Source: Bacilli bacterium
GTDB taxonomy: Bacteria; Bacillota_I; Bacilli_A; RFN20; DUOF01
NCBI GenBank assembly: GCA_017517765.1
Contig: JAFWYE010000006.1
Location: 58,665-122,664 of the forward strand
DNA length: 64,000 bases
Direction of reading: 5' to 3'
The position numbers and the translations under genes are program-made. The notes beneath the pieces were generated by a model, which saw only the letters and a list, made by a program, of their open reading frames with translations, was not told the DNA's origin and searched no databases. Each line of letters opens with the position of its first letter. Position 1 is the first letter of the stretch. Positions 38,786-55,435 of the stretch are shown here, in pieces.

Positions 38786-40315
38786 TTAATCATAAAGTTT
38801 TTCTAACTTCAATGTCATTATTGTTATCTTTGCATTATTTTCAGCATTCTCTAAAGCTTCCTCTAAGGCCCTTTCAGCAGAACTTAATTGAGTTAATGAA
38901 GTTGCCTTTATAACTTCGATTTGAGCCTTTTGTTCACTAGTTAATTTTTCATCAATTGTATTTTTTAATTCATTTGCAACACTCATAAGATTATCTCTTA
39001 TTGTTTTTATTTCATTTAGTGACAATATAGTATCAGCATTATCTACAAAAGTTTTAAGTATAGAAACTAAATTATTATATGCTTCTAAGCGTTGGCTTAT
39101 AATAGAAGCTTCTGCTTTAGTATCATCACTTGCGTTTAATATTTCATATGCGGATTCAAGAGAGTCAATTGAAAATGTAGTTTTATTAAAGATACTTTCA
39201 ATTTGAGATAAATAAGCATTTCTAGCAACCTTTATAGAATTATTAGCTTCTATCTCTGCTTCATCCAAAATAGTATCTATTTCAGTCTTAACATTAGATA
39301 AATCTGTACTAGAATTTTGTTTTATGTAAGTATCTAAATATTTCTCTACACTATTTATAGTTATCTTACCAAGTGAATCTTTTAATACATCTTCACTAGA
39401 AAGATTCAATGTTGTTTTTATACTATCTATTTGCGTTTGTGATAATTCATAATTTTTAATAAGTGTATTATCTTCAATTGTATTGGCAATTAAATCTAAT
39501 CCTTTAGCACTAGCGTGATATAAAACATACATAGAGCCGATATAGCTTTCTTTAGGATTATTACTCATATTTTGACTAAACCAATACATGTAAGCAATAT
39601 CACCTGCAAATACTTTAGCTTGTTCAAATGTACTGTGAGCAATATCTCTAGCATTTTGGAATTCTTCAGTCATAAATAGTTCTATTTTAGAAATATTTGT
39701 ATTAAGTCTATCAATTAGTTCTGAATCATCTAATTCTATAGCAACTTCTAAACTTGTGCTACTTGTTTCACTAACAGCTAAAGCAAGTTTGAATTTTGAA
39801 ATATTTAAATTTTGAATTGTAGTATTATTAGGATATTTACTCTTAAATTCATCTAGTTCACGATATAGAGAATATCCTCCAGTCAAATCAGTAGTAATTG
39901 ACAATCCTAAATTTTGAGCTGTAGTAGTTATAGCAGAAGTAATTGCATTAACCTTCTCTTGAGATATACCCTCACTTACAATTCCTACAATATCATCACT
40001 ACTCAAATATCCCATATTCTTAGCTAGCGTAGTGATCTTTTTAACTGCATCTTCTATTGTGGCTCCAATAACGCCAGTCTCATTATATAAAAGAACTCTA
40101 GCATCATCATTAGTAGCATTAACACTCATTACTTTTCCATATTGGTCTACTATCAAATCTATTGAAGGATTAATATTTAAACTAACATAACCATCTGCCT
40201 CAGCAGCCGGAGGATTTCCTGGAGGATTGCCACCATCAAAACAAGAACAACCTGCTAAATATGCACTACTAGCAACTATTCCTATGCTAAGCAAACCTGT
40301 TATAACCTTTTTCAT
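38786..40315 (-). CDS. Lipoprotein with anti-sigma-I RsgI-like extracellular domain and helical C-terminus
   Basis: YLAGC lipobox; GYVSLNINPSIDLIVD..V..VNATNDDA matches the RsgI periplasmic-domain pattern. Confidence 0.7.
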   Translation of the reverse strand: MKKVITGLLSIGIVASSAYLAGCSCFDGGNPPGNPPAAEADGYVSLNINPSIDLIVDQYGKVMSVNATNDDARVLLYNETGVIGATIEDAVKKITTLAKNMGYLSSDDIVGIVSEGISQEKVNAITSAITTTAQNLGLSITTDLTGGYSLYRELDEFKSKYPNNTTIQNLNISKFKLALAVSETSSTSLEVAIELDDSELIDRLNTNISKIELFMTEEFQNARDIAHSTFEQAKVFAGDIAYMYWFSQNMSNNPKESYIGSMYVLYHASAKGLDLIANTIEDNTLIKNYELSQTQIDSIKTTLNLSSEDVLKDSLGKITINSVEKYLDTYIKQNSSTDLSNVKTEIDTILDEAEIEANNSIKVARNAYLSQIESIFNKTTFSIDSLESAYEILNASDDTKAEASIISQRLEAYNNLVSILKTFVDNADTILSLNEIKTIRDNLMSVANELKNTIDEKLTSEQKAQIEVIKATSLTQLSSAERALEEALENAENNAKITIMTLKLEKLYD

Positions 40316-40507: not shown

Positions 40508-41932
40508 TTAAAATCCACTTGCTTTTAAAACTTCTAATAATGTCTTCTTTTTAGAATAAGGTTCTTTATCATCTATATGCAAAATACCCCAAGTCCCATC
40601 TTTTAAATCGTAAACAATAAATTGAGCATCTGCAATATCAAATAATGGAATCAATTTCATACTTACAACATCAATACCATATTCATTATTAAAATGTTTA
40701 ACAGAATCGAAATCAAGCTGTCTTAAAAATTTAGATGTAGACTTATAAAATACTGACTCTTCAGATAAATTGGATATAAACTTTGAAATCAAGCTATTAT
40801 CATTTAGTTTTGTATTATACATCAATTCTATTTCTTGAACATTTTTGCTTGGTAAAGCATTTGGTTTAAACATCTCTTCTATCTCATTCTTGAGATTCTT
40901 ATGACTGTAAGAAGAATCTTCACAACTTTGTTTTTCTTTATTATTTAATAACACATATTCAGCTCTTACTTCTGCATAATCACACATCAAATCAAAAAAT
41001 GACATGTACTCTTTTGAAAAGTTCTCATAACCGATTTGCTCAAAATTATTTTTTGAATCACACAAATATGTATCTATATATGATGATGGTTCATGAAATT
41101 CAGATTTAATTTTGTTTAACAAATCTAAAGAGAAAACACCACTTGTTAATGTTTTAATTTTTTCAATCACAAAATTCGGAACAGTGTTGTAAAATCTTTC
41201 ACAAAACAATTCAAATCCATTTTTAATATATTCATATTTATTCAAAAGTCTAGCAACAATATCTTCCTTTGATGGAAACTGTTGCTCATTAAGTGCATAT
41301 TGTACTTCAACACTTTTGATTTTCCCATTTTCACCATCCAAATTCTTTAGTATGGTAGGAATTTGTTTTAATAATTTATTGACTTCTTTGTAAACTGATT
41401 CATATTTAAACATGAATCGCCAATAATCTTTTTTTGTAATAACCTTTGAATATCTAAATTTTTCCAATTGTTCTAGCTTATTAATGCTATTCAAATTTGC
41501 AACTTTCAAACCTTCGTCTTTCCATCTTCTTAATTCTGTCAAAGCTAAATTTATATTTGCTTTTTCTTCATCAGTAGCACTTTCTAGAGCTTTTATAGTT
41601 AACTTTTCAATTGTATTTAATGATTTAAAAAAATTCGATGTAATCTTATCCCCATCAATTGATTCTTTTTTAGACCACTTTTCCTTCAACATGTCAGCAT
41701 ATGGCTTACCTTTTATTTCTTTTTCTTTCAAAAAATCCAAAAGCACATCTATTTCATTTTCAATCTCATAAACTCTAATAACTGTTCTAAGACATTCTGC
41801 ATTAAAATCATCGTTTTGTAGTTGATAGTTTTCATCGCCAAGTATGCTATATCCAATTAAATGCCTTCCACTAACAACAAATTTATCATAAATATCACTT
41901 GCATTTTTCATATTTCCAGTTATTTCCTCCAA
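40508..41932 (-). CDS. Hypothetical protein with C-terminal SMI1/KNR4 (SUKH)-like domain
   Basis: VQEIELMYNTKL...LIPLFDIADAQFIVYDLKDGTW resembles SUKH; start may be ATG 41911. Confidence 0.55.
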   Translation of the reverse strand: MEEITGNMKNASDIYDKFVVSGRHLIGYSILGDENYQLQNDDFNAECLRTVIRVYEIENEIDVLLDFLKEKEIKGKPYADMLKEKWSKKESIDGDKITSNFFKSLNTIEKLTIKALESATDEEKANINLALTELRRWKDEGLKVANLNSINKLEQLEKFRYSKVITKKDYWRFMFKYESVYKEVNKLLKQIPTILKNLDGENGKIKSVEVQYALNEQQFPSKEDIVARLLNKYEYIKNGFELFCERFYNTVPNFVIEKIKTLTSGVFSLDLLNKIKSEFHEPSSYIDTYLCDSKNNFEQIGYENFSKEYMSFFDLMCDYAEVRAEYVLLNNKEKQSCEDSSYSHKNLKNEIEEMFKPNALPSKNVQEIELMYNTKLNDNSLISKFISNLSEESVFYKSTSKFLRQLDFDSVKHFNNEYGIDVVSMKLIPLFDIADAQFIVYDLKDGTWGILHIDDKEPYSKKKTLLEVLKASGF

Positions 41933-42055
41933 TTAAACTTCATATTAGCATTATTATTATAAGAGAACAATAGTATCACGTAATTTATGAAATCTCTATA
42001 AAAATTTTATTCTTACTACAGAGAAATAGAGCCTGTTAAGATTGTGAAATATTTT

Positions 42056-42358
42056 TACAGTTTAGCGATAACCCTATACCGTTGTCTGATTTATCCCTTT
42101 CTCTTATTGTCTCATCCTTGTACATGGTTTAACCCATTTCGACTGCCACAATAGCAAATACTTGAATTACTAAGTTCTGGGCAGAATCATAATAATTCCT
42201 TTGCGGATCACAATTTGGAACTAATCGCACATGTTACCTTCGCCATATAAACTCGCTTTGACAAGCTTGTTCATATTTCATCATTAACCAATAATTGGTC
42301 CTATACCAACCGGTTCCAAGGATTTTCTATTCACCCGTACTCACTTAGATAAACTACA
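42056..42358 (-). ncRNA. Candidate ~300-nt structured ncRNA
   Basis: No long ORF, 37% GC by hand count over 42061-42360, end-to-end closing helix, many internal hairpins, own promoter. Confidence 0.6.
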
Positions 42359-42364
42359 TATATG

Positions 42365-42392
42365 GTTATATATAAAAAATCAATATTGTCAA
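42365..42392 (-). promoter_or_regulatory. sigma-A promoter for the candidate ncRNA
   Basis: TTGACA (42392-42387)-N16-TATAAC (42370-42365). Confidence 0.7.
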
Positions 42393-42429
42393 TTATCTAA
42401 AATTGATTAATATATGCACCCAGGAAATT

Positions 42430-42541
42430 AAAAACCAAGAGTTATTTTCTCTTGGCTATAACAAATTTAATTACATTCCAAAGCTATTAGTATTACCAGT
42501 ATTTGAATTTCCTTGACTACCTGGGCATTGAGTTTCTTCAT
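42430..42541 (-). repeat. Displaced copy 2 of cotD-like 3' end (..EETQCPGSQGNSNTGNTNSFGM*) plus terminator
   Basis: 22-bp identity cctgggcattgagtttcttcat at 42520-42541 and 55534-55555. Confidence 0.92.
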
Positions 42542-42569
42542 TAGTAAATATACTTAAATCTGTACTCAA
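42471..42569 (-). CDS. Possible 32-aa chimeric peptide MSTDLSIFTNEETQCPGSQGNSNTGNTNSFGM
   Basis: GAGGTG SD, TTG start, in frame with the displaced cotD tail. Confidence 0.35.
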   Translation of the reverse strand: MSTDLSIFTNEETQCPGSQGNSNTGNTNSFGM

Positions 42570-42979
42570 AATAATCACCTCATAAAACATCTACTTAAAT
42601 ATTATCATGTTTTTTTGATATTATAAATGTTTTATAATATCCATTAATTTTTAAAAAGAACTTATTACTGAAATTATTATATAAATTTAAGATATTACAA
42701 AAAGACTATAGTTTTTCCTAACCAAAAATATTTATTATCTCGAACATAGCCAAATCATACAATGTGAAAACCTATCAGATATTACTTTTTTTAATTATCT
42801 ATTATACATCTTTTTATTTGTACCACATTTAACCCTTATTTATGTGCTCGATATACACATTAATAAATTTAAAATATTTTGTTTATAGATTTAAAAATAT
42901 TATACTATTTTTATACAGTTATTTAGTGATATACTAAATTTGATTTATATATATATTTTTAACATTAAGGGGTGGTTTT

Positions 42980-45900
42980 ATGGTTGATTTATCATCATTA
43001 AACGAAGAACAAAAACAATCCGTCCTTACAACTGAAGGATATGTAAGAGTTATTGCATCTCCTGGGAGTGGTAAAACAAGGGCACTTACACATAGATTTG
43101 CTTATCTAGTAGATGATTTAAAAACTGATCCACAAAATATACTTTGTATTACTTATACAAATAAGGCAGCAGATGAGATGAGAGAAAGAATTATAAAATT
43201 GCTAAGTACTACTGAATATGACTTACAAAATATATCTACAATTCATTCATATTGCACTAGATTTTTAAAAAGTTATTTTCAAAAGCACTATGAATACAAT
43301 TATAGTTTTGATATTTTAGACGAAAGCGCTCTTAACAAATCAATTAAAGCAACATATAAAAACTTGGATTTAGAATACAATGCAAAAAAATTAAGTGAGT
43401 TCAAGAAAATTTTAAGCGATTATAAGATAAATAATTTAACATATGTACCTTATGTTCTAGGCATGACAGATAATTTTAATGTCGATGACGAAAGAATTAA
43501 GCGCATCATTGATATTTCAAAAAAAAGAAAAGCTCTATTTTTTGATGATTTAATTTGTGCAGCAATATATTTGTTAGAAAATGATAATGAAACTTTGAAG
43601 TCAGAATCAGAAAGATTTAAATATATCTTAGTAGATGAATTTCAAGATACATCTTTTATTACATATAGTTTAATAAAAATGCTTTCAAATCATAATAAAA
43701 ATCTATTTGTGGTTGGTGATGTTGACCAATCAATATACAGCTTTATACATGCAGAGCCTGATATATTGCTAAATCAATTTACTAATGATTTTAGTAATGC
43801 AAAAACATTGTATATGAACAATAACTATAGGTCAACAGAAGAAATTATTGAAGCAAGTAATGTACTTATTCAAAATAATCTAAATAGACCAGAATCAAAA
43901 AAAGCCGTTTCCGCCACATCAAAAAAAGGAATTAAACCTGTATATTCGTGTGTTTCTAAAGAAATTGAAATAGTGCATGAAGTGGTAAGAATAATCAAGC
44001 ATTTACATGATGATTTATTTCAAGAATATAAAGACATATTTCTAATTTGTAGAAATAACTATGAACCAGCAAAATTAAGAAATTTCTTAGAATCATCTGG
44101 TATTCCTTATAATGATTCAAGATCAATCAATAAAGATACAACTAATGCTCCAGTGGTAGACGAGCTTTTAAGTTGTTTAATGTTCTCAAAAAATTCAAAT
44201 CCATTTGATTTAGCAAAACTTAATTTATATCAAGAGTTAGGAATAAGCGAATCTGTTATAGAAGATGCAATTAACATGAAAATCGATATTGAAGAATACT
44301 TGCAGTCTAATAAAGAACAATATGAATCATTTTTAAATCGAAACTATTCAACAAAGCAAGTAATATTGAATGAAGAATTGTCCGTTATAGAAAAGATTAC
44401 TTCTATTGTAGGTATCCATAATATATTAAGTAGATACGAACTTGAAGAGGCCGGATTTGAATTTGTTTTGATTGAAGGCCAACCACTGTCTGAATTTTTA
44501 TCATATATTAAAAAGCTCGATGATCAAAATATGACACTATGGGAAATCATAGATAGATTAAAATTAGACAATTCATTTAGTTCTGAGAAAAGTTGTAATG
44601 GTGTAAAAATTCTAACAGCTCATGGTTCAAAAGGCTTAGAAGCTAAAAATGTAATTGTGTATGGTAAAGCATTAGGAGAATTTGGTATAGACGAAGAAGC
44701 AAGAAGGCTAGCCTATGTAGCAATAACTAGAGCCGAAGAAAGATTGTTTATGGTTCAACCACAAAGCAGTTGTTTAATAAATGAGATAAAAAGCGTAGCT
44801 CAAAATATAGAAGATTACTTTGAAATTCAGTTAGAAAATGTAGATATTAAAGATAAATATTATAAAGAATTGAATGATGAAAAGAAAAAAGGATTAGATA
44901 TTTTGATGAGTGGTGAAAATGTTTTCTTAACTGGTGAAGCGGGCACAGGAAAAACTTATCTCTTAAATAGATATATTAAATACTTAAATGACTTTGGAAA
45001 AAACATCATTATATGCGCTCCAACTGGAATAGCTGCAAGTAACTATCCTAATGGTAGAACTATTCATAGTGCTTTTGAATTAAAACCATACCCTTCTGTT
45101 ATATACGATGAAACACCTGGATATAAAACCTGTGATGTTTTAATTATTGATGAAATATCAATGTGTAGGCTTGATATGTTTGAATACATGATGAATATGG
45201 TTCTAAATGCTTATAGTAAAGGATATAAAGTTCAAGTAATAGTTTGCGGTGACTTCTTTCAATTGCCTCCTGTAGTGATTGATAATGAAAGGAGCATACT
45301 AAAAGAACTTTTTGAAGGATTTAATGAAGGCTTTGCATTTGAATCTAAAACGTGGAATGAGATGAACTTTAAAGCTATTTGGCTAAAAGAAATATTTAGA
45401 CAAAAAGATAACAAAGATAACTTTGTTGATGCATTAAACTCAATAAGAAGAGGAAAAGATGTAGACAAATATATAAAATTAATAAATGACGGATGTTCTA
45501 AGGAACCTAATAAAGATGCTATTGAGATACATTCTAAAAACGCTGAGGTTTGTAAATATAATAATCAAGGCTTGTCAAAATGTAATGGTGAGGAATATAT
45601 ATATAAGGCAGAAATCTATGGAAATGATCCAATATCCCCTGATTTAAATATAGAAAATGAAATACATCTTAAACCAGGGGCAAGAGTTATGATGACTAGA
45701 AATAGTGGTATTGGAACCAACAGAATAATTACATACAGAAATGGTTCTTGCGGAACCGTTGTGACATGCACTAATGATTATATCGATATTGTCTTAGATG
45801 AAGGAGGTTGTGCTAGAATATCTAAACATAAGTTTCCATGTTATGGCGAATTAAAAATATTTGTCAATTCTGATGGGACAAAAGAAGTGATTCAGGAGGA

Positions 45901-46147
45901 AACAAATACGGTTGTTCACCAATTACCAATTAAACTGGCATATGCTATTACTATACATAAAAGTCAAGGACAAACTTATGAAAAGGTAAATCTTAATCCT
46001 GACGGATGGGAGAATGGACAATTATATGTTGCTTTATCTAGGATAAAAAGTTTATCCGGTTTATATTTGTATAAGCCTATTGAAGCAAAAGTTATAAAAA
46101 CTTCTCAATCAGTAATTGACTTTTATAATAATTTAGAAACAGAATAA
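42980..46147 (+). CDS. Fusion of UvrD/PcrA-like (SF1A) and Pif1-like (SF1B) helicases
   Basis: Two complete motif sets: ASPGSGKT/DEFQD/GDVDQSIY/HGSKGLE/YVAITRA and GEAGTGKT/DEISM/GDFFQLPPV/TIHKSQGQT/YVALSR. Confidence 0.92.
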   Translation: MVDLSSLNEEQKQSVLTTEGYVRVIASPGSGKTRALTHRFAYLVDDLKTDPQNILCITYTNKAADEMRERIIKLLSTTEYDLQNISTIHSYCTRFLKSYFQKHYEYNYSFDILDESALNKSIKATYKNLDLEYNAKKLSEFKKILSDYKINNLTYVPYVLGMTDNFNVDDERIKRIIDISKKRKALFFDDLICAAIYLLENDNETLKSESERFKYILVDEFQDTSFITYSLIKMLSNHNKNLFVVGDVDQSIYSFIHAEPDILLNQFTNDFSNAKTLYMNNNYRSTEEIIEASNVLIQNNLNRPESKKAVSATSKKGIKPVYSCVSKEIEIVHEVVRIIKHLHDDLFQEYKDIFLICRNNYEPAKLRNFLESSGIPYNDSRSINKDTTNAPVVDELLSCLMFSKNSNPFDLAKLNLYQELGISESVIEDAINMKIDIEEYLQSNKEQYESFLNRNYSTKQVILNEELSVIEKITSIVGIHNILSRYELEEAGFEFVLIEGQPLSEFLSYIKKLDDQNMTLWEIIDRLKLDNSFSSEKSCNGVKILTAHGSKGLEAKNVIVYGKALGEFGIDEEARRLAYVAITRAEERLFMVQPQSSCLINEIKSVAQNIEDYFEIQLENVDIKDKYYKELNDEKKKGLDILMSGENVFLTGEAGTGKTYLLNRYIKYLNDFGKNIIICAPTGIAASNYPNGRTIHSAFELKPYPSVIYDETPGYKTCDVLIIDEISMCRLDMFEYMMNMVLNAYSKGYKVQVIVCGDFFQLPPVVIDNERSILKELFEGFNEGFAFESKTWNEMNFKAIWLKEIFRQKDNKDNFVDALNSIRRGKDVDKYIKLINDGCSKEPNKDAIEIHSKNAEVCKYNNQGLSKCNGEEYIYKAEIYGNDPISPDLNIENEIHLKPGARVMMTRNSGIGTNRIITYRNGSCGTVVTCTNDYIDIVLDEGGCARISKHKFPCYGELKIFVNSDGTKEVIQEETNTVVHQLPIKLAYAITIHKSQGQTYEKVNLNPDGWENGQLYVALSRIKSLSGLYLYKPIEAKVIKTSQSVIDFYNNLETE

Positions 46148-46173
46148 ACTTAAAAACCTAGTGAAATTTATCA

Positions 46174-47202
46174 TTAGGTTTTTTTAATATTAATTAGTGA
46201 TGATTTCATTACTCTTACAATATCATTAATCATAATCTCATTAATTTCAACTTTTTTCACTATACTTCTAGCCATTGCTCTATCCAATATTTCTATTGAT
46301 ATATCAGGGTTAGATGTATTTGTAATATCCTTTGATTCATTAAGAATGTAATGCAAGATATTTTTATTTAATTTTCTATCAGAAAAATCATCTAATATTT
46401 TAATCACGGTATTATCGCTCACTTCGCTTATAAATATAGGTGATAGTCTTCTAGTAAGTGCTGGATCATTTTTAATTGTATTATTAAACTCATTTGGCGT
46501 TGTTGCGCCAATGATAGTAATCTCTCCTGAGGAAAGGAAAGGTTTCAAAATATTTCCAGCACTCAATGCTCCTTCTGCTGCTCCTGCATCATATATAGTA
46601 TGAATTTCATCAATAAAAATAATTACTTTTTTTGATTTGCTTTTTTTATTAAATTCAATAATACTTATAATTGCATTATATAGTTTTCCTTCGAATTCAC
46701 CTCTATATTTAGTTCCAGCAAGACATGCGGTCATATTAAGCTCTAGAATAATATATTTATCATATATTTCCTTTGCTAATTGTTCTATAATTGCAGTTTT
46801 ACCACATCCAGCATTACCAATTAATATAGAATTTTTCATTCTTTTCTTATGCAAACTTTCAATTAATAAGTCTATCTCATCCCTTCTATCAATAAGATTG
46901 ACATTTCTTGATAGTATTGAAAAAATTGCATTATCCTTTAATATTTTTTCTATTTCAATAGAATCTATAGTATCATTTTTATCTTTTACACTCATGTATC
47001 TTCCAACTATTTTAGGTAAAGAAGGGGGATTAGTATGTAATCTTTTTGGTTCATATTCTATTTTCACTACTTTAGCAGGTCCATCTTTATCACTAAGTGA
47101 TACTAAGTCTCCTTCTTTTATTGTTTCATCCTCACACAAATATAGATATTCTCTCTTTCCTTTATATCGAACAACGTGTGCATAGATATAATTTTCTTTC
47201 AT
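46174..47202 (-). CDS. Single-domain ClpA/B NBD1-like AAA+ ATPase with small N-terminal beta domain
   Basis: GNAGCGKT, AGTKYRGEFE, IFIDEIH, GATT, DPALTRR. Confidence 0.88.
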   Translation of the reverse strand: MKENYIYAHVVRYKGKREYLYLCEDETIKEGDLVSLSDKDGPAKVVKIEYEPKRLHTNPPSLPKIVGRYMSVKDKNDTIDSIEIEKILKDNAIFSILSRNVNLIDRRDEIDLLIESLHKKRMKNSILIGNAGCGKTAIIEQLAKEIYDKYIILELNMTACLAGTKYRGEFEGKLYNAIISIIEFNKKSKSKKVIIFIDEIHTIYDAGAAEGALSAGNILKPFLSSGEITIIGATTPNEFNNTIKNDPALTRRLSPIFISEVSDNTVIKILDDFSDRKLNKNILHYILNESKDITNTSNPDISIEILDRAMARSIVKKVEINEIMINDIVRVMKSSLINIKKT

Positions 47203-47288
47203 CTTTATTCCTCCTTTATTTTTATTCGCTAACTATTTCTTTTTTATCAATTGTATTTATTTATGCTTTATTGATATTTTTTTCTTTT

Positions 47289-47729
47289 CTATACTTGTTT
47301 TGTATTATTATCGTATAAGACACTATCTTTTATTAGCTGCCCATTTTCAAAATACAAAATATAACTCATTTCATAGAATTCAGGGCTAGAACATATAAAT
47401 GCATAATTACCGCCAAAATAATTCTTTCCAATTAGTAAACTACCAGTATAATTTATTCCTTGATTAATTTCATATTTATTATCCTTTAACTCCACACCAT
47501 ATATTTTGAGCGAATTATCTATCATACCATAGACATTAATTCTATTTAATATTAATTTTTTTTGGTTTAATTTTAGATCTACTGTAAATCCTCTATAGCA
47601 TGCAGTAGAATTACTTTTTGGATAAAAATTTAATTTTTTAATATCCAATATACCCTTTTCATCACTTATTTCTAGAATATTCCAGGTCTCATTTTTAAAC
47701 TCTATTTTATCTGGTATTTGCATTGTCAT
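47289..47729 (-). CDS. Hypothetical protein (MTxQIPD...STACYRG type)
   Basis: Coupled ORF in operon; YTGSLLIG and LYFENG motifs; no function assigned. Confidence 0.7.
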   Translation of the reverse strand: MTMQIPDKIEFKNETWNILEISDEKGILDIKKLNFYPKSNSTACYRGFTVDLKLNQKKLILNRINVYGMIDNSLKIYGVELKDNKYEINQGINYTGSLLIGKNYFGGNYAFICSSPEFYEMSYILYFENGQLIKDSVLYDNNTKQV

Positions 47730-48007
47730 CAGTCTTCACCTCTAAACTTAAGACCTAAATCATGAACTTTATCTATCAATTCTTGTACTGTTTTTTTGCC
47801 TGCATTTCTAATAGCAAATAAATCTGGTATTGATTTAGAAATAAGTTCATATATTGTTATTATATTTGCCCTTTTAAGGCAATTCTCAGCTCTTATCGAT
47901 AGCATAATTATCTCTGTTACTTCTGTATTTTTTAATCTAGATATACTTGTTGGTTCCTCTAATGTTGTTGTGAATATACTTTCACTTAAAATTTTTTTTA
48001 TTGTCAT
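47729..48007 (-). CDS. Stand-alone RNA polymerase alpha C-terminal domain protein
   Basis: LSIRAENCLKRANI.TI.ELI..S..DL..IRNAGKKT matches alpha-CTD; GGAGG SD before ATG 48007. Confidence 0.85.
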   Translation of the reverse strand: MTIKKILSESIFTTTLEEPTSISRLKNTEVTEIIMLSIRAENCLKRANIITIYELISKSIPDLFAIRNAGKKTVQELIDKVHDLGLKFRGED

Positions 48008-48225
48008 TTTAATAATTCCTCCCATTTTTCTTCAAATTCATCTATTTCTATAATTCCACATGACATGCATGATAATAACTCATTCAATTTATTATATTTT
48101 TCAACTACATTTTTTGGAGCAGTTTCATTAAACACTATATTTCCAAATTCATTTTCATTATACCACTCTTTATGGTCATATACTTCCTTTAGAAATGCAT
48201 CATATCTTTCATCTCTTATCATCAT
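48004..48225 (-). CDS. Small hypothetical protein
   Basis: Coupled ORF, GAGGTG SD. Confidence 0.6.
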   Translation of the reverse strand: MMIRDERYDAFLKEVYDHKEWYNENEFGNIVFNETAPKNVVEKYNKLNELLSCMSCGIIEIDEFEEKWEELLK

Positions 48226-48226
48226 T

Positions 48227-48643
48227 TTACATCACCTCTTTTAATTGTACTAAATATTGCAATCTTTCAAAGAATAGCCACATTAAACGGATATTATCTG
48301 AATCATCAATTGAAGCATGCCCATCTTCCATCATAAACGAATTTGCATATTCATTGCCTGCAACTTCTAGAATATCATTCAAACAGGTTTTAATTATTTT
48401 CAGGCATTCTTCTATGTCTAGTTTTATTTTCTCTTTTGTAATATTTTTGTTTTTTTCTTTATATAATTCTAAGCACTCATAACAAGGTAACTCTCCTGAA
48501 TCATATCCGTTAATAGCACCTTCTAAATCAATACAATATTCTATAAATTTATATATATTCTCTACTTGATTTAGTTTATTAAATATTAAATCTTCCTTTT
48601 TTATTTTAATAATGATCTCGTTTTCATTTTTACTTACTTTCAT
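48227..48643 (-). CDS. Hypothetical protein
   Basis: Operonic ORF with SD. Confidence 0.7.
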   Translation of the reverse strand: MKVSKNENEIIIKIKKEDLIFNKLNQVENIYKFIEYCIDLEGAINGYDSGELPCYECLELYKEKNKNITKEKIKLDIEECLKIIKTCLNDILEVAGNEYANSFMMEDGHASIDDSDNIRLMWLFFERLQYLVQLKEVM

Positions 48644-48661
48644 ATTCCTTTACCTCTTTCC

Positions 48662-49384
48662 TTACGCTATTACATCTTCATTAAATGTTTTAAATAAATT
48701 ATTTTCATCATATAGACTTCCATGAGCCTTAACAATTCTTTTTGCATTCCTTAATCCCTTTAAAGCAAATACATCACAATCAATTTTTAATAACTCACAT
48801 TGCTTTTGAACTTCATCTACTACATATTCAAATTTTTCAAACGTTTTATCTTTTTCAAGTTCACCTAATAGATCTCTTATCATTCCAAACTTATTAGTTT
48901 TTTCTAAATCTTCATGCCAGATTAATTCTTGTAAAAGTCTATTAGTTCCAAATAATTCTTTTTCACTCATTGTCATAACACCTTCATATACAAATCCAAA
49001 TATCCTATTTAGAATTACATGCTTATAACAATCTATGATATCATCAATATCATTGCTCCAGTACCATCCCCCGATTGAAGCAATAAATGCACTTTCATAG
49101 TTCCAAATAAATATTGTTTCTTCCCCTATGCAATGATTATTTGTGGTAATATGCTCAATTACCTCTTTAAAATCATGTTTTTCTTCATAAGTATCAAACA
49201 CATCATCATAATTTTTAAAAACCCTGAACTTTATTCCATCTTCATTAAGGCCATTAGTTGACTTATTACCACTATACTCTTTAACAATCTCATCAACCTC
49301 ACTAGTGTTATTTAGTCTATACAAATTGTATTTACTAGATTCACTAGATTCATTTTCTACTACTAACATTATTCTTTCATTCAT
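48662..49384 (-). CDS. Hypothetical protein; C-terminal half similar to 51870..52244
   Basis: AGGAGG SD; shared TI..G.W.W and VK..G..Y..KTFN.D patterns. Confidence 0.75.
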   Translation of the reverse strand: MNERIMLVVENESSESSKYNLYRLNNTSEVDEIVKEYSGNKSTNGLNEDGIKFRVFKNYDDVFDTYEEKHDFKEVIEHITTNNHCIGEETIFIWNYESAFIASIGGWYWSNDIDDIIDCYKHVILNRIFGFVYEGVMTMSEKELFGTNRLLQELIWHEDLEKTNKFGMIRDLLGELEKDKTFEKFEYVVDEVQKQCELLKIDCDVFALKGLRNAKRIVKAHGSLYDENNLFKTFNEDVIA

Positions 49385-49411
49385 TTTATTTCCTCCTTAT
49401 ATAGAATAATT

Positions 49412-49523
49412 TATAAGCAAGCAGCAAGTAGTAAAGAAAAAGAAATTAGGTTTATCAAAAGGAGTAAATATTACTTGCTGCTCCTTACGCTTACACTATA
49501 AAACAAAAGATAACTTTTTCCAA
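49412..49523 (-). promoter_or_regulatory. Promoter plus hairpin leader, copy A
   Basis: TTGGAA-N17-TATAGT, TAAGCGTAA, 11-bp stem (49420-49430/49472-49482) enclosing CTCCTTTTG. Confidence 0.7.
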
Positions 49524-49625
49524 AACCATAACTAATAGCAAATATTTTAATCTTAACTATATATTATATATAATATATAGTAAGATTAACTGTATAAAAA
49601 TATTATAAAAAAATGCTTGATCCAC

Positions 49626-50099
49626 TCAAGCATAATCTTTTTCTGTCAAATAATAGGCGACATTTACATAATTATTATTAATTTTATCATCAGCATATGG
49701 AATATAGCCACAGTAAAAATATCCTATTAATCCTACACTACCAAATCGTATCAATTCACTATAAGGTTTATAACCAATATATTCTAAGTGATTTGGCATT
49801 CGACTAAACTCATCTTTCCTTTCTAATTCTTGTTGTTCTAATTCCTTGTTTACAAAATCATCTAAATTCGTTCCAAAATCAGCATTCATTATATACAACC
49901 TACTTATTAATTCCTCATCACTAATAACATTACACTTATGCATCAATAAAAGCGGTCTAATAATCCAATTATAACTAACATGAGCTCCAATCAATTTATC
50001 GTATCCCATCTCTACTAATTTTAAAAAAAATGCATTTTCTTTAATCTCTTTTAATAACTCCATTTTATCTGAAGATTCAATACATACAGGTTTATTCAC
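49626..50099 (-). CDS. Hypothetical protein
   Basis: GGAGGTG SD, GTG start abutting the upstream stop. Confidence 0.7.
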   Translation of the reverse strand: MNKPVCIESSDKMELLKEIKENAFFLKLVEMGYDKLIGAHVSYNWIIRPLLLMHKCNVISDEELISRLYIMNADFGTNLDDFVNKELEQQELERKDEFSRMPNHLEYIGYKPYSELIRFGSVGLIGYFYCGYIPYADDKINNNYVNVAYYLTEKDYA

Positions 50100-50912
50100 T
50101 TACTTCACCTCCAAATGTCTATAAAATTGGACATACCCATCATGGTTATAACTACCAATATACTCATTATGCTTCTCTAAATACCACTTAACATCAGCCT
50201 TTTTAATCATACTAAGATATTTACCGATATTTTCAAACTTATCAGAATATTGACCACCAGTTCTTTTTAAATATTCTTCCTCAACCATCAAAAACATAAG
50301 TTTAATCATATTACTATACTTATAGTTATTTATTGAATATAAAAGATACTCTGTATCCACAATAAATTCATAGTAAGGATATTTATTATAATCATCCCCA
50401 TATCCTCCAATCTTTGTCAGTATATTCTCCTTTATTTCTTTAATTGCAGATTTAATATTTTCATCCTTACCCATATACTCTTGAAATAAAGTATCTCTAA
50501 GATTTGAATTTTCATCATAGCATTTTTTTATATATGAATTAGAACTATCTAATAATCCCTCATCTACTAAATACTTTATTTTTATTAAATGAAGTGTAGT
50601 ATTTGTTACTCTATGTGAATTTACCTCTTTAAGATATTTAATTAAAGCAAGAGTCTTATCTTTAGACTTGGTAACAAACTTTGAGGCATAACCACAATAC
50701 TCATCTAAATCAAACTTTTTATGTTTAGCCGAAGGCATTAAAAAAAAGCAATTGTATCCTCTTTCATCAAACAACTCATTTACATCATTTAATAAGTCTA
50801 TATCTTCAGGATTTAATCCATATAAATCTACAAAATACAAAATAACCTCTTCCTCACTAAAGTACGTATTTTCTAATCTTATCATGATTTTTCTTAATTC
50901 TTCTTTATTCAC
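50100..50912 (-). CDS. Hypothetical protein, paralog of 50905..51888
   Basis: Shared AKH, SK..T..LI.Y..E and N.IK..FL.....YL patterns. Confidence 0.75.
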   Translation of the reverse strand: MNKEELRKIMIRLENTYFSEEEVILYFVDLYGLNPEDIDLLNDVNELFDERGYNCFFLMPSAKHKKFDLDEYCGYASKFVTKSKDKTLALIKYLKEVNSHRVTNTTLHLIKIKYLVDEGLLDSSNSYIKKCYDENSNLRDTLFQEYMGKDENIKSAIKEIKENILTKIGGYGDDYNKYPYYEFIVDTEYLLYSINNYKYSNMIKLMFLMVEEEYLKRTGGQYSDKFENIGKYLSMIKKADVKWYLEKHNEYIGSYNHDGYVQFYRHLEVK

Positions 50913-51888
50913 TTACTATCACCTCTTTGAAAATGACACTAGCAAGTCCTACATAACCACTACAAAACACTTGTAAATCTTTTAAATTATCTTTATAAAA
51001 AGCCATTAAATCCTCAACCATATCTTGATCTAAAGATTTATATAAACTCATAATCATACTTCTAAGTTTACCCTTTTCTATATCATATTCATTATCACTT
51101 AAATAATATCTTTGTAAAATCAAAAAGTTAATCTTAATAGAATTAGCAATCTTTTTATCAAATGGAAGAAGTAACTCTTCCATCTTATTTACAAATATTG
51201 CAATGGGACTACCATCATCTACATCGACATTTAAATCAAATACTTCTATTAATATCTTATATACATAATTCAAAATATTTTCAGAATCTGTATCTCCACC
51301 AGGTTCATTATATTGTAAATATGCATCTTTCCATAAATCATATATTGTTCCTATCTTTACTTCTTCCCTGCGGTCAATGTAGTCAATAATATCCCCATAT
51401 TGATCTATATGAGGATACAACTCTAATAGTTTTCTAATCCTTATATCATCAAGAGAATAATAAGTAAATGCTTTATCCTTGATCTCATTAACATAATAAA
51501 TCAACTCTTTTGTATACGCTTTTGAAGTCATCGCCCTTTTAACTAAATAAGAATAATATTTTTTATTAAATCTCATCTCTAAATTATAAGTAAAACTTCC
51601 ACTTTCAGGATTATAATTATCAAAGTCTATATAACGATGGCGAATATCATTTATATGTTTAGCCCTACCTAAACTCATAAAATCTTCATCCCAATAAAAT
51701 CCAAAAATATCATATAATTCTTTTAACTCTGATATAGAAATCATAAAATCCCTTAACATAGAGTGAATAATAGCTTTAATTTCTTTTTCATCTAAATTAT
51801 GTTCATTACAATCATTAACTAATATTTCCATCCATTTTTTCATAATTTCACCTACTTCCATTTTATAATTTATTCTTCTTTTAAACAA
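50905..51888 (-). CDS. Hypothetical protein, paralog of 50100..50912
   Basis: Long operonic ORF; same shared patterns; start uncertain. Confidence 0.75.
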   Translation of the reverse strand: MFKRRINYKMEVGEIMKKWMEILVNDCNEHNLDEKEIKAIIHSMLRDFMISISELKELYDIFGFYWDEDFMSLGRAKHINDIRHRYIDFDNYNPESGSFTYNLEMRFNKKYYSYLVKRAMTSKAYTKELIYYVNEIKDKAFTYYSLDDIRIRKLLELYPHIDQYGDIIDYIDRREEVKIGTIYDLWKDAYLQYNEPGGDTDSENILNYVYKILIEVFDLNVDVDDGSPIAIFVNKMEELLLPFDKKIANSIKINFLILQRYYLSDNEYDIEKGKLRSMIMSLYKSLDQDMVEDLMAFYKDNLKDLQVFCSGYVGLASVIFKEVIVSE

Positions 51889-52244
51889 TCTCCATTAAAT
51901 GTTTTATTATAATCAAAATAGATTGTTCCTTTATTTTTCTTAACTCTTTCTATTGCCTCTTCTATATTAGAATAAACATAATATCTATATTTGATGTTAC
52001 ATTCTTTATATAGTAGATTTACACTATATATCCATCTTTCTAAATCAATAATAGATATAATAGAATTAATTTTACTCTTCATATACTCTTTAGTAATATC
52101 ACCGATATCCTCTTCTATCTCTTTTAATAAAATACTTAATAACGCCTTAAAACTACTACCCCATAACCAATACCCCTTATACATGTTATGTTCCCTTTTT
52201 TTATATACTAATATTGTCCTATTAGTAATCAATATATTATTCAT
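51870..52244 (-). CDS. Hypothetical protein, similar to the C-terminal half of 48662..49384
   Basis: First gene after leader copy B. Confidence 0.7.
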   Translation of the reverse strand: MNNILITNRTILVYKKREHNMYKGYWLWGSSFKALLSILLKEIEEDIGDITKEYMKSKINSIISIIDLERWIYSVNLLYKECNIKYRYYVYSNIEEAIERVKKNKGTIYFDYNKTFNGDCLKEE

Positions 52245-52267
52245 ATTCTCACATCCTATCTATATAA

Positions 52268-52355
52268 TATAAAGAGTGGCATATTATGATAAACAAAAGG
52301 AGGAGAACCACTCTTTACGCTTAAAACTATATAGAATATATAAAAAGAACTCCAA
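52268..52355 (-). promoter_or_regulatory. Promoter plus hairpin leader, copy B
   Basis: TTGGAG-N18-TATAGT, TAAGCGTAA, stem TAAAGAGTGG/CCACTCTTTA enclosing CTCCTCCTTTTG. Confidence 0.7.
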
Positions 52356-52573
52356 TGCAGGAGTTTTTATAAAAAAATAATATTTAATTATATATAATAA
52401 ATATTAACAATTTACATAATTTAGATACTTATTGTACAAAATCATGATGTTCTTTGTTTTGTTAATGGAATATTGTCTTTACCACATTTTTGAACGATCA
52501 TCAAAGCATATTACTTTCATCTACATTTACCTTTATTTCTTAACCTAGACCAATTTAGCATAATTTAAAGGCG

Positions 52574-55435
52574 TCACTTTTTATTTGATTCTAAAATTGA
52601 CTTAACAAAGTCTGAAGTTTTGTTTTTTGTGTGCAGTATATAAATGCTTTCTTTTGCTCTTGTCAAAGCCACATAAAATAGTTTTTCTTCATCTTCAATT
52701 GCATCCATATAATTCTGATCAAATAACGTAAACAGTTCATTATTAACATTATAAACAGGAAAAGACTTTTCATTTACATTCAATAAAATTACAACATCTG
52801 CTTCTTCTCCTTTAGAAGCATGAACCGTAGAAATTTTTATTTTGTTCATATCTGGCCCATACTTTGAGCAATTCTTTACAATTTTCTTTAACATTCTCTC
52901 AAATTCAAGCAAATCAATCCCTAAAATGCTATTACTTCTATTTAAAATCATAATATTAGACTTCGGATTTTTAGAAATAATATCATAACATATTCTAAAG
53001 CATCTTGATAAATCCCACTTTTCCATATTTTCATATGTAAGTCTACCTATATAATTATCTACTTTATCTTCACTATTCATAAAAATACTATCTGTGTCTA
53101 AAACGTTAACTTCTCCCTCATACATTGAAACAGAAACAGCTGGTTTACCAGAATATTTATGATCAATCATGAACTTATTAGCTGTTGTAACAATATTTTT
53201 AAAACTTCTATAATTATTTGTAACGCTAAATTCTTTTGCATTCTCATAATTAGATAAAAATCCATTAAAATACTTTGTATTTGATCCTGCAAATCTGTTT
53301 ATAGCCTGCCAATCATCTCCGACAGCAAATATTTTGATATTTGAATTTATTTCTAAAATAGCACTAATCAAATTATCAAACAAACGAGAAAAGTCTTGAT
53401 ATTCATCAATAAGTACCCAATTCAACTCTTTTATAACATGATCATAATTACCATTTCTAACTAAAACTATAGCATTATGCATAAGTTCATTAAAATCTAA
53501 TCTACAATACTTAAATTCTTCTAAAGAAGGACTTTTAATTTCGGCATGCAATTCCTTTATATATTCAAGATATACTTTATATCCCAAATTATAGAAACTT
53601 TTTACTTTAGGGTCTAATATGGCATCAAATTGATTTGTTAGTGATGAAACATCATCATAATAATATTGCTGTAATTTATTTATAAATTGCTCCATTAATA
53701 TTGTAAAGCCATCAATCCCTTTTTCCCATACTTTTCTTTGTAAAACTTCTTCTGGCAGTTTTTGATCATATACACCATATCCTTTTAGCTTTTCTTCAAT
53801 TATCGCTTCTGCCTTTTCTCTACTGATATTTTCAAATTCTTTGGCATTTGTTTCTATCAATCCTTTTATACAATTGAAAGTATCATTATACTTTGTATGA
53901 ACTAAATGCTTCATATTTGGAAAATTCCAAAATTGTTTCTTCCAATTCATATTGTTAATATAGTAATTATAATTGCCAACGCTTGATTCAAAATCAAAAA
54001 TTTCCTTTAGGGTTTCCTTTCCATTAACACCCCAGTTTTCCCATACAAAATTATATTTTTTTAAATAGAAATCCGGTTTGGTTTCTTTCTTCCCATCGAC
54101 TAATCTCATAAACTCCTTGTAATCATTTCTGTCTATTAAACAATTCCATCTAGGAGCGATTTTGTAAGGAAAAAACGATTTTTCATACACATAGTCTATA
54201 CCATGTTCAAATAAATAATCAGCAATTATCTTTTCAGAATAAGATTTCACAGTTTCTCCATTCAAAGTTTTATAACTAGAATTTCTTTTAAATTTGTAGT
54301 AGTCCTCTAGACTAGTAAAGGTTTTTCTATCAATATAATTTAATGAGGAATAAAAAAAGTCATATACTTCTTCCCTAAATAAAGTATCCTTCTTTATCAT
54401 CTCATTTAAGATTATTTTCAAAAATTTAGTCTTATTTTCTAATATTTTATTATCATTTTTCGGATTAACTATGTCATGTGCCAAAGAGTGAAACGTTCTG
54501 GCAAATTTATCATGCAAATACTTTGGTTCACCATCTATAAGACACTTTTCACTTATTCTTTTATTAATTTCATTGGCCGCCTCTTTATTAAAACAAAAAG
54601 CCATTATATTTTTTTGATTCATTTTTTGAACTTCTATCTCATATATAATCTTGCCTATTATAGTTCGAGTTTTGCCACTTCCTGCTCTTGCTGTGACAAT
54701 AGAATTGTCATTAGATACAATGGCAGCACATTGTTGCTCATCAAAAACCAATTTTTCATTTTCAAAAAGAATGTGTTCGTTTACAAACATTTTATAATTA
54801 TTTATTTTTCCTTTTATATCTTCTACCAGTTTTGCTTGTGCATTTAAAAACTTATCGTCAAAAATCAAATTTCCACTATTAATTAATTTATCAAGCACCC
54901 ATACTCTAGGCTCACTTTGTCCGTGCTTAAATAAATAATTATTGGTAGAAGAATACTTTAATGAGCAAAACTTTACCCCTTGTTCAGCATGGATATCACA
55001 TATAATTACATCAAAAATATTATTATTATTTTCTACGAATTTTGCTTTCATTCCTTCATGTATATAAGTATCATCAATTTTAAATTTATTATTTACATAA
55101 TTCGTTTTACCATTTTTAATCATGCCTTGTTTTATTACAAATTTGTGTTTCTTCCAATTATTGACATCTATTTGATGCAGTTCAATAAATTTTTTAATAG
55201 TTTCAATTATTTTATCGCCATATTTGTAATACTTACTCCCATAAATACCGCATTCTTGCAATTCCAACCTATCCATAGGTAAATTTTCTACAAGTTTTAC
55301 CAGTTCACCATCATTAAAAATATAATAATATGGCTTATAGCTTGTTTTCATAAGTTCTTCTCTCATACACTTCAGTATGTCTTTTAGCTCATCATATAAA
55401 AATATATACTCACTATCCATATTATCACCACTCAC
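52574..55435 (-). CDS. Helicase IV (HelD)-like UvrD helicase with N-terminal HRDC and inserted nuclease-like domain
   Basis: HRDC (PYYYIFND..L..L...P..KYGDKII), ARAGSGKT, KSYSEKIIADYL..PDFYL..WENWG, DEYQD, VHASKGEE, YVALTRA. Confidence 0.85.
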   Translation of the reverse strand: MSGDNMDSEYIFLYDELKDILKCMREELMKTSYKPYYYIFNDGELVKLVENLPMDRLELQECGIYGSKYYKYGDKIIETIKKFIELHQIDVNNWKKHKFVIKQGMIKNGKTNYVNNKFKIDDTYIHEGMKAKFVENNNNIFDVIICDIHAEQGVKFCSLKYSSTNNYLFKHGQSEPRVWVLDKLINSGNLIFDDKFLNAQAKLVEDIKGKINNYKMFVNEHILFENEKLVFDEQQCAAIVSNDNSIVTARAGSGKTRTIIGKIIYEIEVQKMNQKNIMAFCFNKEAANEINKRISEKCLIDGEPKYLHDKFARTFHSLAHDIVNPKNDNKILENKTKFLKIILNEMIKKDTLFREEVYDFFYSSLNYIDRKTFTSLEDYYKFKRNSSYKTLNGETVKSYSEKIIADYLFEHGIDYVYEKSFFPYKIAPRWNCLIDRNDYKEFMRLVDGKKETKPDFYLKKYNFVWENWGVNGKETLKEIFDFESSVGNYNYYINNMNWKKQFWNFPNMKHLVHTKYNDTFNCIKGLIETNAKEFENISREKAEAIIEEKLKGYGVYDQKLPEEVLQRKVWEKGIDGFTILMEQFINKLQQYYYDDVSSLTNQFDAILDPKVKSFYNLGYKVYLEYIKELHAEIKSPSLEEFKYCRLDFNELMHNAIVLVRNGNYDHVIKELNWVLIDEYQDFSRLFDNLISAILEINSNIKIFAVGDDWQAINRFAGSNTKYFNGFLSNYENAKEFSVTNNYRSFKNIVTTANKFMIDHKYSGKPAVSVSMYEGEVNVLDTDSIFMNSEDKVDNYIGRLTYENMEKWDLSRCFRICYDIISKNPKSNIMILNRSNSILGIDLLEFERMLKKIVKNCSKYGPDMNKIKISTVHASKGEEADVVILLNVNEKSFPVYNVNNELFTLFDQNYMDAIEDEEKLFYVALTRAKESIYILHTKNKTSDFVKSILESNKK

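Follow-up and report, generated by a model that had tools for sequence, protein, structure and literature searches.

A truncated and rearranged paralogue of a probable reduced tandem ROOL-like locus in the genome of a Bacilli bacterium

The ROOL RNAs, which are found in rumen bacteria and in phages, belong to the largest non-coding RNAs of bacteria. We know of no function of ROOL. According to Weinberg et al. (2017, PMC5737381), the family (RF03087) has a mean length of 581 nt, six multistem junctions as well as three pseudoknots, and its contexts are prophages and tRNAs. A more recent preprint (10.1101/2024.12.08.627333) reports that ROOL forms RNA-only octameric cages, as seen by cryo-EM. 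The two loci described below belong to one genome of 1.55 Mb in 10 contigs. The first lies in a 64,000-nt stretch of DNA, hereafter the window (C1:58665-122664), where it occupies positions 42396-42046 on the - strand. An earlier note had taken this block for a candidate highly structured ncRNA of about 300 nt with its own sigma-A promoter, presumably belonging to a mobile element and either new or a compact relative of ornate RNAs such as ROOL or ARRPOF. The second is an intact 1.3-kb cassette at C1 ~315,910-317,237, situated 215 kb from the window block on the same chromosome. The window block pointed to this intact locus, and the parent is the more interesting object. We consider it probable, for the explanation taken as a whole, that the window block is a rearranged and truncated paralogue of the cassette and the relic of a ROOL-like parent. 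What is new is the reduced tandem locus, the modules of which are rather likely to be ROOL-like; the window holds its truncated copy.

The promoter-like site of the window block consists of TTGACA and TATAAC with 16 nt between them. It agrees with the consensus at 11 of 12 positions, position 6 of the -10 element being C and not T, and because this T is missing the site was not listed by the promoter scan. Both the site and the ORF-free stretch behind it were found where the earlier note had placed them. Over ~310 nt there were no ORFs of at least 60 aa, and the longest stop-to-stop frame was 50 aa. The raised GC was equally borne out: it was 0.35-0.38 over 42025-42324, where the adjoining spacers had 0.16-0.25 and the adjoining ORFs 0.22-0.31; the genome has 29% GC overall (0.27-0.30 per contig). 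The terminator scan gave nothing terminator-like between the element and the 474-aa ORF downstream of it, and the sole terminator-like site nearby (42457-42433) is upstream of the promoter and belongs to a small upstream ORF. Measured against an independent sRNA gene with promoter and terminator of its own, the block falls short, having a weak -10 and no downstream terminator. Rfam assigned the window element to no family, only noise being returned at E up to 10. The matches at gathering score across the whole window were two tRNAs at 60.4 kb and nothing else.

A search of the complete genome (1.55 Mb) gave exactly one other match to the window block, and this match was split in two parts (Table 1), both of them within the 1.3-kb cassette. 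The window block is thus a paralogue of the cassette, and the two are referred to as the window copy and the long copy. Its 5' segment carries an XRE/HTH gene's promoter and 5' UTR, and the 3' segment corresponds to 225 nt from the interior of the second of the two modules in the GC-rich unit of the long copy. In the long copy 845 nt lie between the parts that match the two segments. The window copy is without the HTH gene, without the left closing strand and without ~460 nt of the unit. It also lacks the last ~130 nt of the second module, with which the right closing strand and the terminator are gone. The earlier note was right that a promoter-like site is present. The site is not the block's own, however; together with the 5' UTR it comes from the XRE/HTH gene and was apparently fused to the rest by a deletion of ~850 nt. 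The 3' limit given in the earlier note, 42056, fell near 42046, where the duplicated block ends. As an RNA gene the block is incomplete, since the 3' segment is an internal 225-nt piece of the second module, has no terminator and shows no significant excess of structure. With respect to phage regulators of the cro/cI XRE type, which have autoregulated promoters, the likeness is that the promoter, the 5' UTR and the palindromic block in the window duplicate those belonging to an HTH_3 gene; the difference is that the regulator gene itself is gone from the window copy.

Table 1. Positions of the features in the two copies and scores of model R1. Plain numbers are window positions; L006 is C1:312000-321000, with coordinates on its + strand. 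E-values of R1 and R2 are rough, the calibration having been short.
Feature	Position	Strand	Basis or value
474-aa ORF, downstream of the element	40508-41932	-	no known family
Promoter-like site: -35 TTGACA (42396-42391), 16-nt spacer, -10 TATAAC (42370-42365)	42365-42396	-	sequence read
Terminal 9-bp helix, 5' strand UGUAGUUUA	42350-42358	-	complementarity; 2.1% of shuffles
Terminal 9-bp helix, 3' strand UAAACUGUA	42056-42064	-	complementarity; 2.1% of shuffles
23-nt block TTGGTATAGGACCAATTATTGGT, two overlapping palindromes	42287-42309	-	identical in both copies
5' segment	42287-42396 = C1:315904-316014	-	84% identity; promoter and 5' UTR of XRE/HTH gene
3' segment	42046-42270 = C1:316860-317085 (L006 4861-5086)	-	90% identity
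Junction, 14-nt AGCTTGTCAAAGCG	42254-42267	-	repeat flanks the absent segment in the related strain's long version
Long-copy promoter TTGACA-16-TATAAT	L006 3910-3937	+	12/12 consensus
Long-copy 5' UTR, ~115 nt	between promoter and HTH ORF	+	sequence read
75-aa XRE/HTH ORF	L006 4073-4300	+	Pfam HTH_3, E = 3.5e-9; PHROG phage transcription regulators
13-nt-arm hairpin over HTH stop codon, then U-run	L006, 3' end of HTH ORF	+	inverted repeat
GC-rich ORF-free stretch, ~750 nt at 0.35-0.41 GC	L006 4425-5175	+	GC scan
Intrinsic terminator, common to convergent esterase gene	L006 5214-5237	+	terminator scan
R1 match	L006 5092-5213	+	23.6 bits, E = 2e-4
R1 match	L006 4673-4759	+	19.9 bits, E = 2e-3
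R1, best background	elsewhere in 92.8 kb		12.8 bits
R1, five held-out ROOLs			96-140 bits
R1, window block	42046-42396		no match up to E = 10

The junction was clarified by a related strain, 95-99% like the window, from a bovine gut run (X15), for which the evidence consists of short metagenome contigs. One contig follows the 5' part of the window to 42254 and continues into an RBS and an ATG. The other carries central sequence like that of the long copy and joins the window at 42267. These two contig ends place the 14 nt on both sides of a segment of ~850 nt, and the window junction is consequently the exact recombinant of the two repeats. In the genome's own long copy the 14-nt repeat is recognisable at the two matching places, 90% alike. 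As for the direction of the event, we infer by parsimony a deletion rather than an insertion, because the zone of raised GC reaches past the shared 225 nt on both sides, as do the closing helix and the ROOL-like elements; an insertion with duplication of 14 nt is the alternative. The sequence of events would have begun with a long version, from which ~850 nt were deleted between two 14-nt direct repeats, of which one was in the 5' UTR of the HTH gene and its partner close to where the second module starts. With that deletion the first module would have gone, along with the HTH gene and the 5' closing strand. The last ~130 nt would have been lost at a second break, and with them the terminator, the 3' closing strand and the ROOL-like 3' module. 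The remainder would be a chimeric fragment of ~310 nt behind a weakened promoter and, if transcribed, an accidental leader of the 474-aa gene. Base 42365 is C in the window, T in the long copy and in the related strain (X15), and another base than in the window in run X12 too, which points to a probable down-mutation in the short copy.

In the long copy the XRE/HTH gene is separated from the GC-rich unit by an AT-rich spacer. The whole GC-rich and ORF-free unit measures ~840 nt, with a terminator at its end. The promoter scan listed no promoter-like site on the + strand of L006 4120-4918, and the unit may thus be reached by read-through from the HTH promoter. Its ends form 15 perfect pairs between L006 4389-4403 and 5193-5207, and the pairing can be continued to 20 nt at 90%. 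The closing helix as a whole comprises about 15-23 bp. Among 2000 flank-wise dinucleotide shuffles none reached 15 pairs, the shuffle maximum being 14. The fold of L006 4300-5235 had z = -2.73, and 1 of 20 shuffles was as good. The genes that flank the long copy are not phage genes. A mobile-element context, as the earlier note supposed, would be plausible from the phage-type HTH gene at the parent and from the accessory island which the window piece adjoins (two UvrD/GajB-like helicases and orphan genes).

The Rfam model of ROOL matched the long copy at L006 4868-5213 with 27.6 bits (E = 0.0011-0.0018), below the family threshold, as the gathering score is 99.1. The match spans model positions 1-574 with large deletions. 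It emerged when 866 or 541 nt were searched, for which the filters are laxer, and was absent with 1411 nt. The ROOL search of the whole genome reported no match at E up to 1, that of 11 genomes of the family gave nothing, and Rfam on the first half of the long unit gave no ROOL match. When all 4227 Rfam families were run on both copies at E up to 10, only ROOL on the long copy and obvious noise were returned. The other large RNAs of Rfam 15, presumably GOLLD, OLE, raiA, HEARO and ARRPOF, were compared by these all-family scans only; the likeness to them is in size class and in high GC within an AT-rich genome.

For comparison with genuine members of the family, 63 viral loci were collected via a consensus motif, and 19 of the 20 tested were true ROOLs at 110-402 bits. 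Most of these 19 also carry tRNA matches within their ~1.8 kb. Two covariance models were used besides that of Rfam. R1 describes the 3' region of ROOL in 172 positions, was built from 19 phage ROOLs and was run without filters over 92.8 kb. R2 describes the middle region (UUGAUG, a hairpin, UAUAAG, then AGUAGCC). R1 matched the long copy at two places, one in each module (Table 1). R2 gave 12.8 and 12.1 bits on the two modules, which is at noise level against a background of 13.8, while held-out ROOLs scored 39-114 bits. By eye, the arrangement UUGAW-hairpin-(G)UAUAA was seen in both modules of the long copy and in the window piece.

The 3' region of ROOL consists, in the models, of GGUGAAAGUU, a hairpin with a GUAAnCAAUCC loop, a domain of 62-67 nt, UGAAUA, a GCGAAG hairpin and an AU-rich tail. 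At both R1 places there is a G-C-closed hairpin with the loop UAACCAAU, and of the genome's 17 sites with a stemmed TAA.CAAT these two alone have the G-closed hairpin with this loop. The second module also has UGAAUA and then a terminal hairpin ahead of an AU-rich tail, and the first has a GAAG-loop hairpin ahead of an AU-rich stretch. In the R1 alignment GGUGAAAGUU and the conserved domain were absent from both modules. A MAFFT alignment of the two modules with each other was structurally not sensible.

We regard it as rather likely that the ~840-nt unit is made of two tandem and strongly reduced ROOL-like modules inside one closing helix, and the unit as a whole would then have ROOL ancestry. 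The likeness comprises a large, GC-rich and ORF-free unit adjoining a phage-type gene, an AU-rich terminal closing helix, and a common order of motifs, namely UUGAW, hairpin and (G)UAUAA, the GUAAnCAAUC-loop hairpin, UGAAUA and the terminal hairpin. The unit differs from ROOL in that its modules are of ~350-450 nt, against a mean of 581 nt, with two of them in tandem inside one closing helix, and in that no tRNA was found within 9 kb around the long copy (the window piece has its tRNAs 18 kb off). Doubtful, though by no means negligible, is the alternative that the resemblance is spurious and that the unit is a new structured RNA with no relation to ROOL, or else non-functional foreign DNA whose GC is higher. 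It would account for the low Rfam score, obtained only when at most 866 nt were searched and not genome-wide, for the missing invariant GGUGAAAGUU and 62-67-nt domain, and for the middle-region model at noise. It would likewise fit the sequence-only profile of 62 ROOL loci, the best genome-wide match of which fell inside the long unit but had E = 4.4. Against it stand two models of independent scoring which agree on the place, two tandem matches on the same strand within 840 nt that are 7-11 bits over any background, the restriction of the UAACCAAU-loop hairpin to these two sites, and the motif order and AU-rich terminal closing helix shared with real ROOLs. In Smith-Waterman comparisons with 40 ROOLs the halves of the long unit lay ~2.2-2.5 sd above shuffles and the window piece 0.7 sd. 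If the modules are indeed ROOL-like, a reduced tandem set beside a phage-type regulator would help to define the minimal conserved core, and the parent locus would provide a compact object on which to test assembly and function.

The window piece, unlike the parent, matches no ROOL model: neither the Rfam model and R1 at E up to 10 nor R2 at E up to 2 gave a match. A compact relative of ROOL was thus suggested with some reason as far as the parent is concerned, with its sub-threshold match, but not for the window piece under any of the three models. Nor was the high degree of structure confirmed. On the - strand the block folds with an MFE of -72.2 kcal/mol, where 100 shuffles gave -66.2 +/- 4.5 (z = -1.34) and 8 of them folded as well; on the opposite (+) strand z was +0.33. 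An energy clearly under that of shuffles, as expected of a structured RNA, is not what the block has. The long-range helices named in the earlier note are mostly of a kind that arises by chance, as a helix of 9 bp or longer (Watson-Crick and G-U) between the 5' and 3' parts occurred in 93% of 1000 dinucleotide shuffles. The terminal helix is the exception: its two 9-mers are present and complementary as described, and a 9-bp helix of the first 15 nt with the last 25 nt was formed in just 2.1% of dinucleotide shuffles (n = 1000). Its first pair is U-A in the window copy and C-G in the long copy, a compensatory change. Between the two copies the 3' segment has ~22 substitutions, of which 3 fall within the 52 predicted pairs and all 3 keep the pairing, for a structure that was fitted on the same two sequences and then compared.

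In our reading the window fragment is most likely a decaying relic that has lost its function, because the ROOL-like parts, both closing strands and the terminator are lost, the -10 is damaged and the fold is ordinary. Three observations run counter to this. Firstly, the rarity of the terminal helix and its compensatory first pair are what a closed short RNA predicts. Secondly, the substitutions avoid predicted pairs, with the reservation on the fitted structure given above. The third is stable retention: across 4 studies, 11 runs have the window version near-unchanged (0.98-0.99 of the words sampled), and these runs may all represent a single strain. The same three would be expected if the ~310-nt block were a functional, self-contained small RNA, a minimal ROOL-like derivative with a captured promoter and closed by the 9-bp helix, and the raised GC, the G-U pairs and the fold energies favouring the - strand would fit as well. 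We nevertheless find such a small RNA unlikely in view of the modest z value of the MFE, the absent terminator, a -10 that has lost its invariant T, the loss of every part of the parent that significantly resembles ROOL, and the lack of homologues in 41 relatives, 401 genomes of the order, phages, plasmids and pattern scans of viral and metagenome contigs. Bolder still, and in our opinion quite unlikely, would be a parent that is a miniaturised ROOL-type nanocage RNA of two ~350-450-nt lobes in a single ~840-nt transcript with a closing terminal helix, coupled to a cro-like regulator, with the window block as a working minimal derivative re-closed by the 9-bp helix. The captured promoter would in that case drive the derivative, which might for instance act as a partner or a decoy for the full-length RNA. 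Taken as a relic, the block carries a caution, in that a GC-rich, promoter-bearing and ORF-free stretch may be a recombination fragment and not an RNA gene.

The 23-nt block of the 5' segment is identical in the two copies while its surroundings differ. The palindrome search, allowing at most 2 mismatches, gave two matches on opposite strands that overlap at this one place, where 0.02 would be expected. The double palindrome could act in the RNA, as a hairpin switch, or in the DNA, as an operator for the HTH protein. A degenerate form of the pattern had 30 matches in viral contigs, all 30 unrelated. If it is an operator, the whole block might be an orphan XRE promoter/operator by which the HTH protein of the long locus would control the 474-aa gene in trans, the RNA piece being a passenger. 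The conserved palindrome amid divergent surroundings, an HTH_3 protein encoded at the long locus only and the element joined to the 474-aa ORF with no terminator between would all suit this arrangement. We hold it for very improbable, however, since the palindrome lies ~50-75 nt past the predicted start, far for a repressor site, since the 474-aa gene has a nearer promoter-like site (41979-41950), and since its sole relative lacks such a leader. This relative, the only one in 10 genomes of the family, has an upstream spacer of 71 nt, and the window element is by this token not a conserved leader of the 474-aa gene family. As no terminator-like site intervenes, any transcript from the window promoter would run into the 474-aa ORF. 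The 474-aa protein was assigned to no family by Pfam, PHROG or PADLOC.

Outside the species, neither copy had a homologue in the sets searched, namely relatives, genomes of the order, phages, plasmids and pattern scans of contigs. The DNA search of 41 relatives returned merely two matches of 26-39 nt (E ~7-9e-4). In 401 genomes of the order there were only matches of 22-81 nt, none of them useful; some fell in the promoter, the HTH gene or the AT-rich spacer, others within the initial ~150 nt of the GC-rich unit. Phages and plasmids searched with both copies gave no match, and the exact patterns, three in viral contigs and one in metagenome contigs, had 0 matches each. The sequences at hand for covariation were the two copies and strain variants. 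Relatives of the HTH protein, at 49-59% identity and one at 40%, come from Clostridia and gut metagenomes; their genes stand in dense, phage-like operons, with protein genes following the HTH gene. The 129 loci of such relatives (49 from genomes, 80 from metagenomes) contained no homologous non-coding DNA; they match in the CDS alone, plus up to ~45 nt of the 5' UTR in four loci.

The block could also be what is left of a protein-coding gene, a possibility that the earlier note had itself set against an RNA and that we consider extremely improbable. Across 21 stop-to-stop frames of both copies Pfam yielded two short matches only, both under the cut-off (17/53 bits and 12/27 bits), and PHROG in 16 frames of both copies yielded nothing but one at E = 0.033. 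Searches by tblastn against the ORFs flanking the 49 + 80 loci of HTH relatives gave short matches at chance level only. The translated frames thus had no significant match to Pfam, PHROG or by tblastn, and the two copies are separated by a 1-nt indel and unphased substitutions, which also speaks against a decayed gene.

Several other kinds of element were considered and rejected. Group I and group II introns, a retron msr-msd and an IscB or TnpB guide RNA had no Rfam support, and the matching proteins were absent nearby. The same was true of a MITE, which in addition would have just two copies in the genome, and of the single-strand origin of a rolling-circle plasmid, to which the resemblance is of 6 nt only. 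Among the sequencing runs listed as containing the locus none was of RNA; one that had been guessed to be RNA is probably DNA, and its coverage is confined to 41645-41849 within the 474-aa ORF. DNA of the species was present in animal gut runs, some of which were labelled bovine or sheep.

The promoter-bearing, ORF-free element in the window derives from a longer parent unit, approximately 840 nt and GC-rich, which is intact on a chromosome contig (G000:C1) of the same genome and is of greater interest than the window fragment itself. In the parent unit a perfect closing helix of 15 bp encloses two tandem modules resembling the 3' part of ROOL. The unit is flanked by genes for a TMEM164-family membrane protein and an esterase, and a 75-aa phage-type HTH gene lies upstream of it. 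Both halves of the long unit (L006:4560-5130) carried the short motifs CAAGWAUUUGCURUUG, ACNNUAUAGGGU and CGGCAAASGGA, as well as a hairpin with a UAACCAAU loop. The order of these motifs differed in part between the halves, and the two modules are therefore not a simple recent tandem duplication.

Shortened ROOLs do exist in phages, as shown by a reduced variant in a viral contig (L201). It scored 110 bits, above the Rfam threshold, the other ROOLs scoring 275-402, and was surrounded by six tRNA hits (Rfam). Its GUAACCAAUCC loop is identical to that of the parent unit.

Coordinates of the parent unit, the viral ROOL variant and features around the window fragment
Feature	Position	Strand	Remark
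Intact GC-rich unit, ~840 nt	G000:C1:316380-317219 = L006:4381-5219	+	outside window
Reduced ROOL variant, 499 nt	L201:558-1056		viral contig of 206 kb
Small ORF	window 42471-42590	-	
Terminator of small ORF	window 42457-42433	-	directly 5' of the element's promoter
Predicted lipoprotein, 509 aa	window 38786-40315	-	
Accessory island	window 42980-55435		two large UvrD-type helicases at its borders
Stand-alone RNA polymerase alpha C-terminal-domain protein, 98 aa	window 47729-48025		between island helicases

The small ORF upstream of the element encodes 39 aa from an ATG start or 31 aa from a TTG start, the latter preceded by an AGGTGA ribosome-binding site. No family match was found for it in Pfam or PHROG. 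Its product has a high content of Asn, Gly, Ser and Thr and a single Cys, and could be a secreted or modified peptide. On the other side of the element, the predicted lipoprotein gene is located directly 3' of the 474-aa ORF, and the central domain of its product is RsgI-like anti-sigma.

Between the two helicases of the accessory island, an AAA ATPase and at least eight ORFs without family are encoded. One helicase (1055 aa) is a UvrD fused to a PIF1/RecD-like part, the other (953 aa) has an HRDC domain, and both matched GajB-like PADLOC models.
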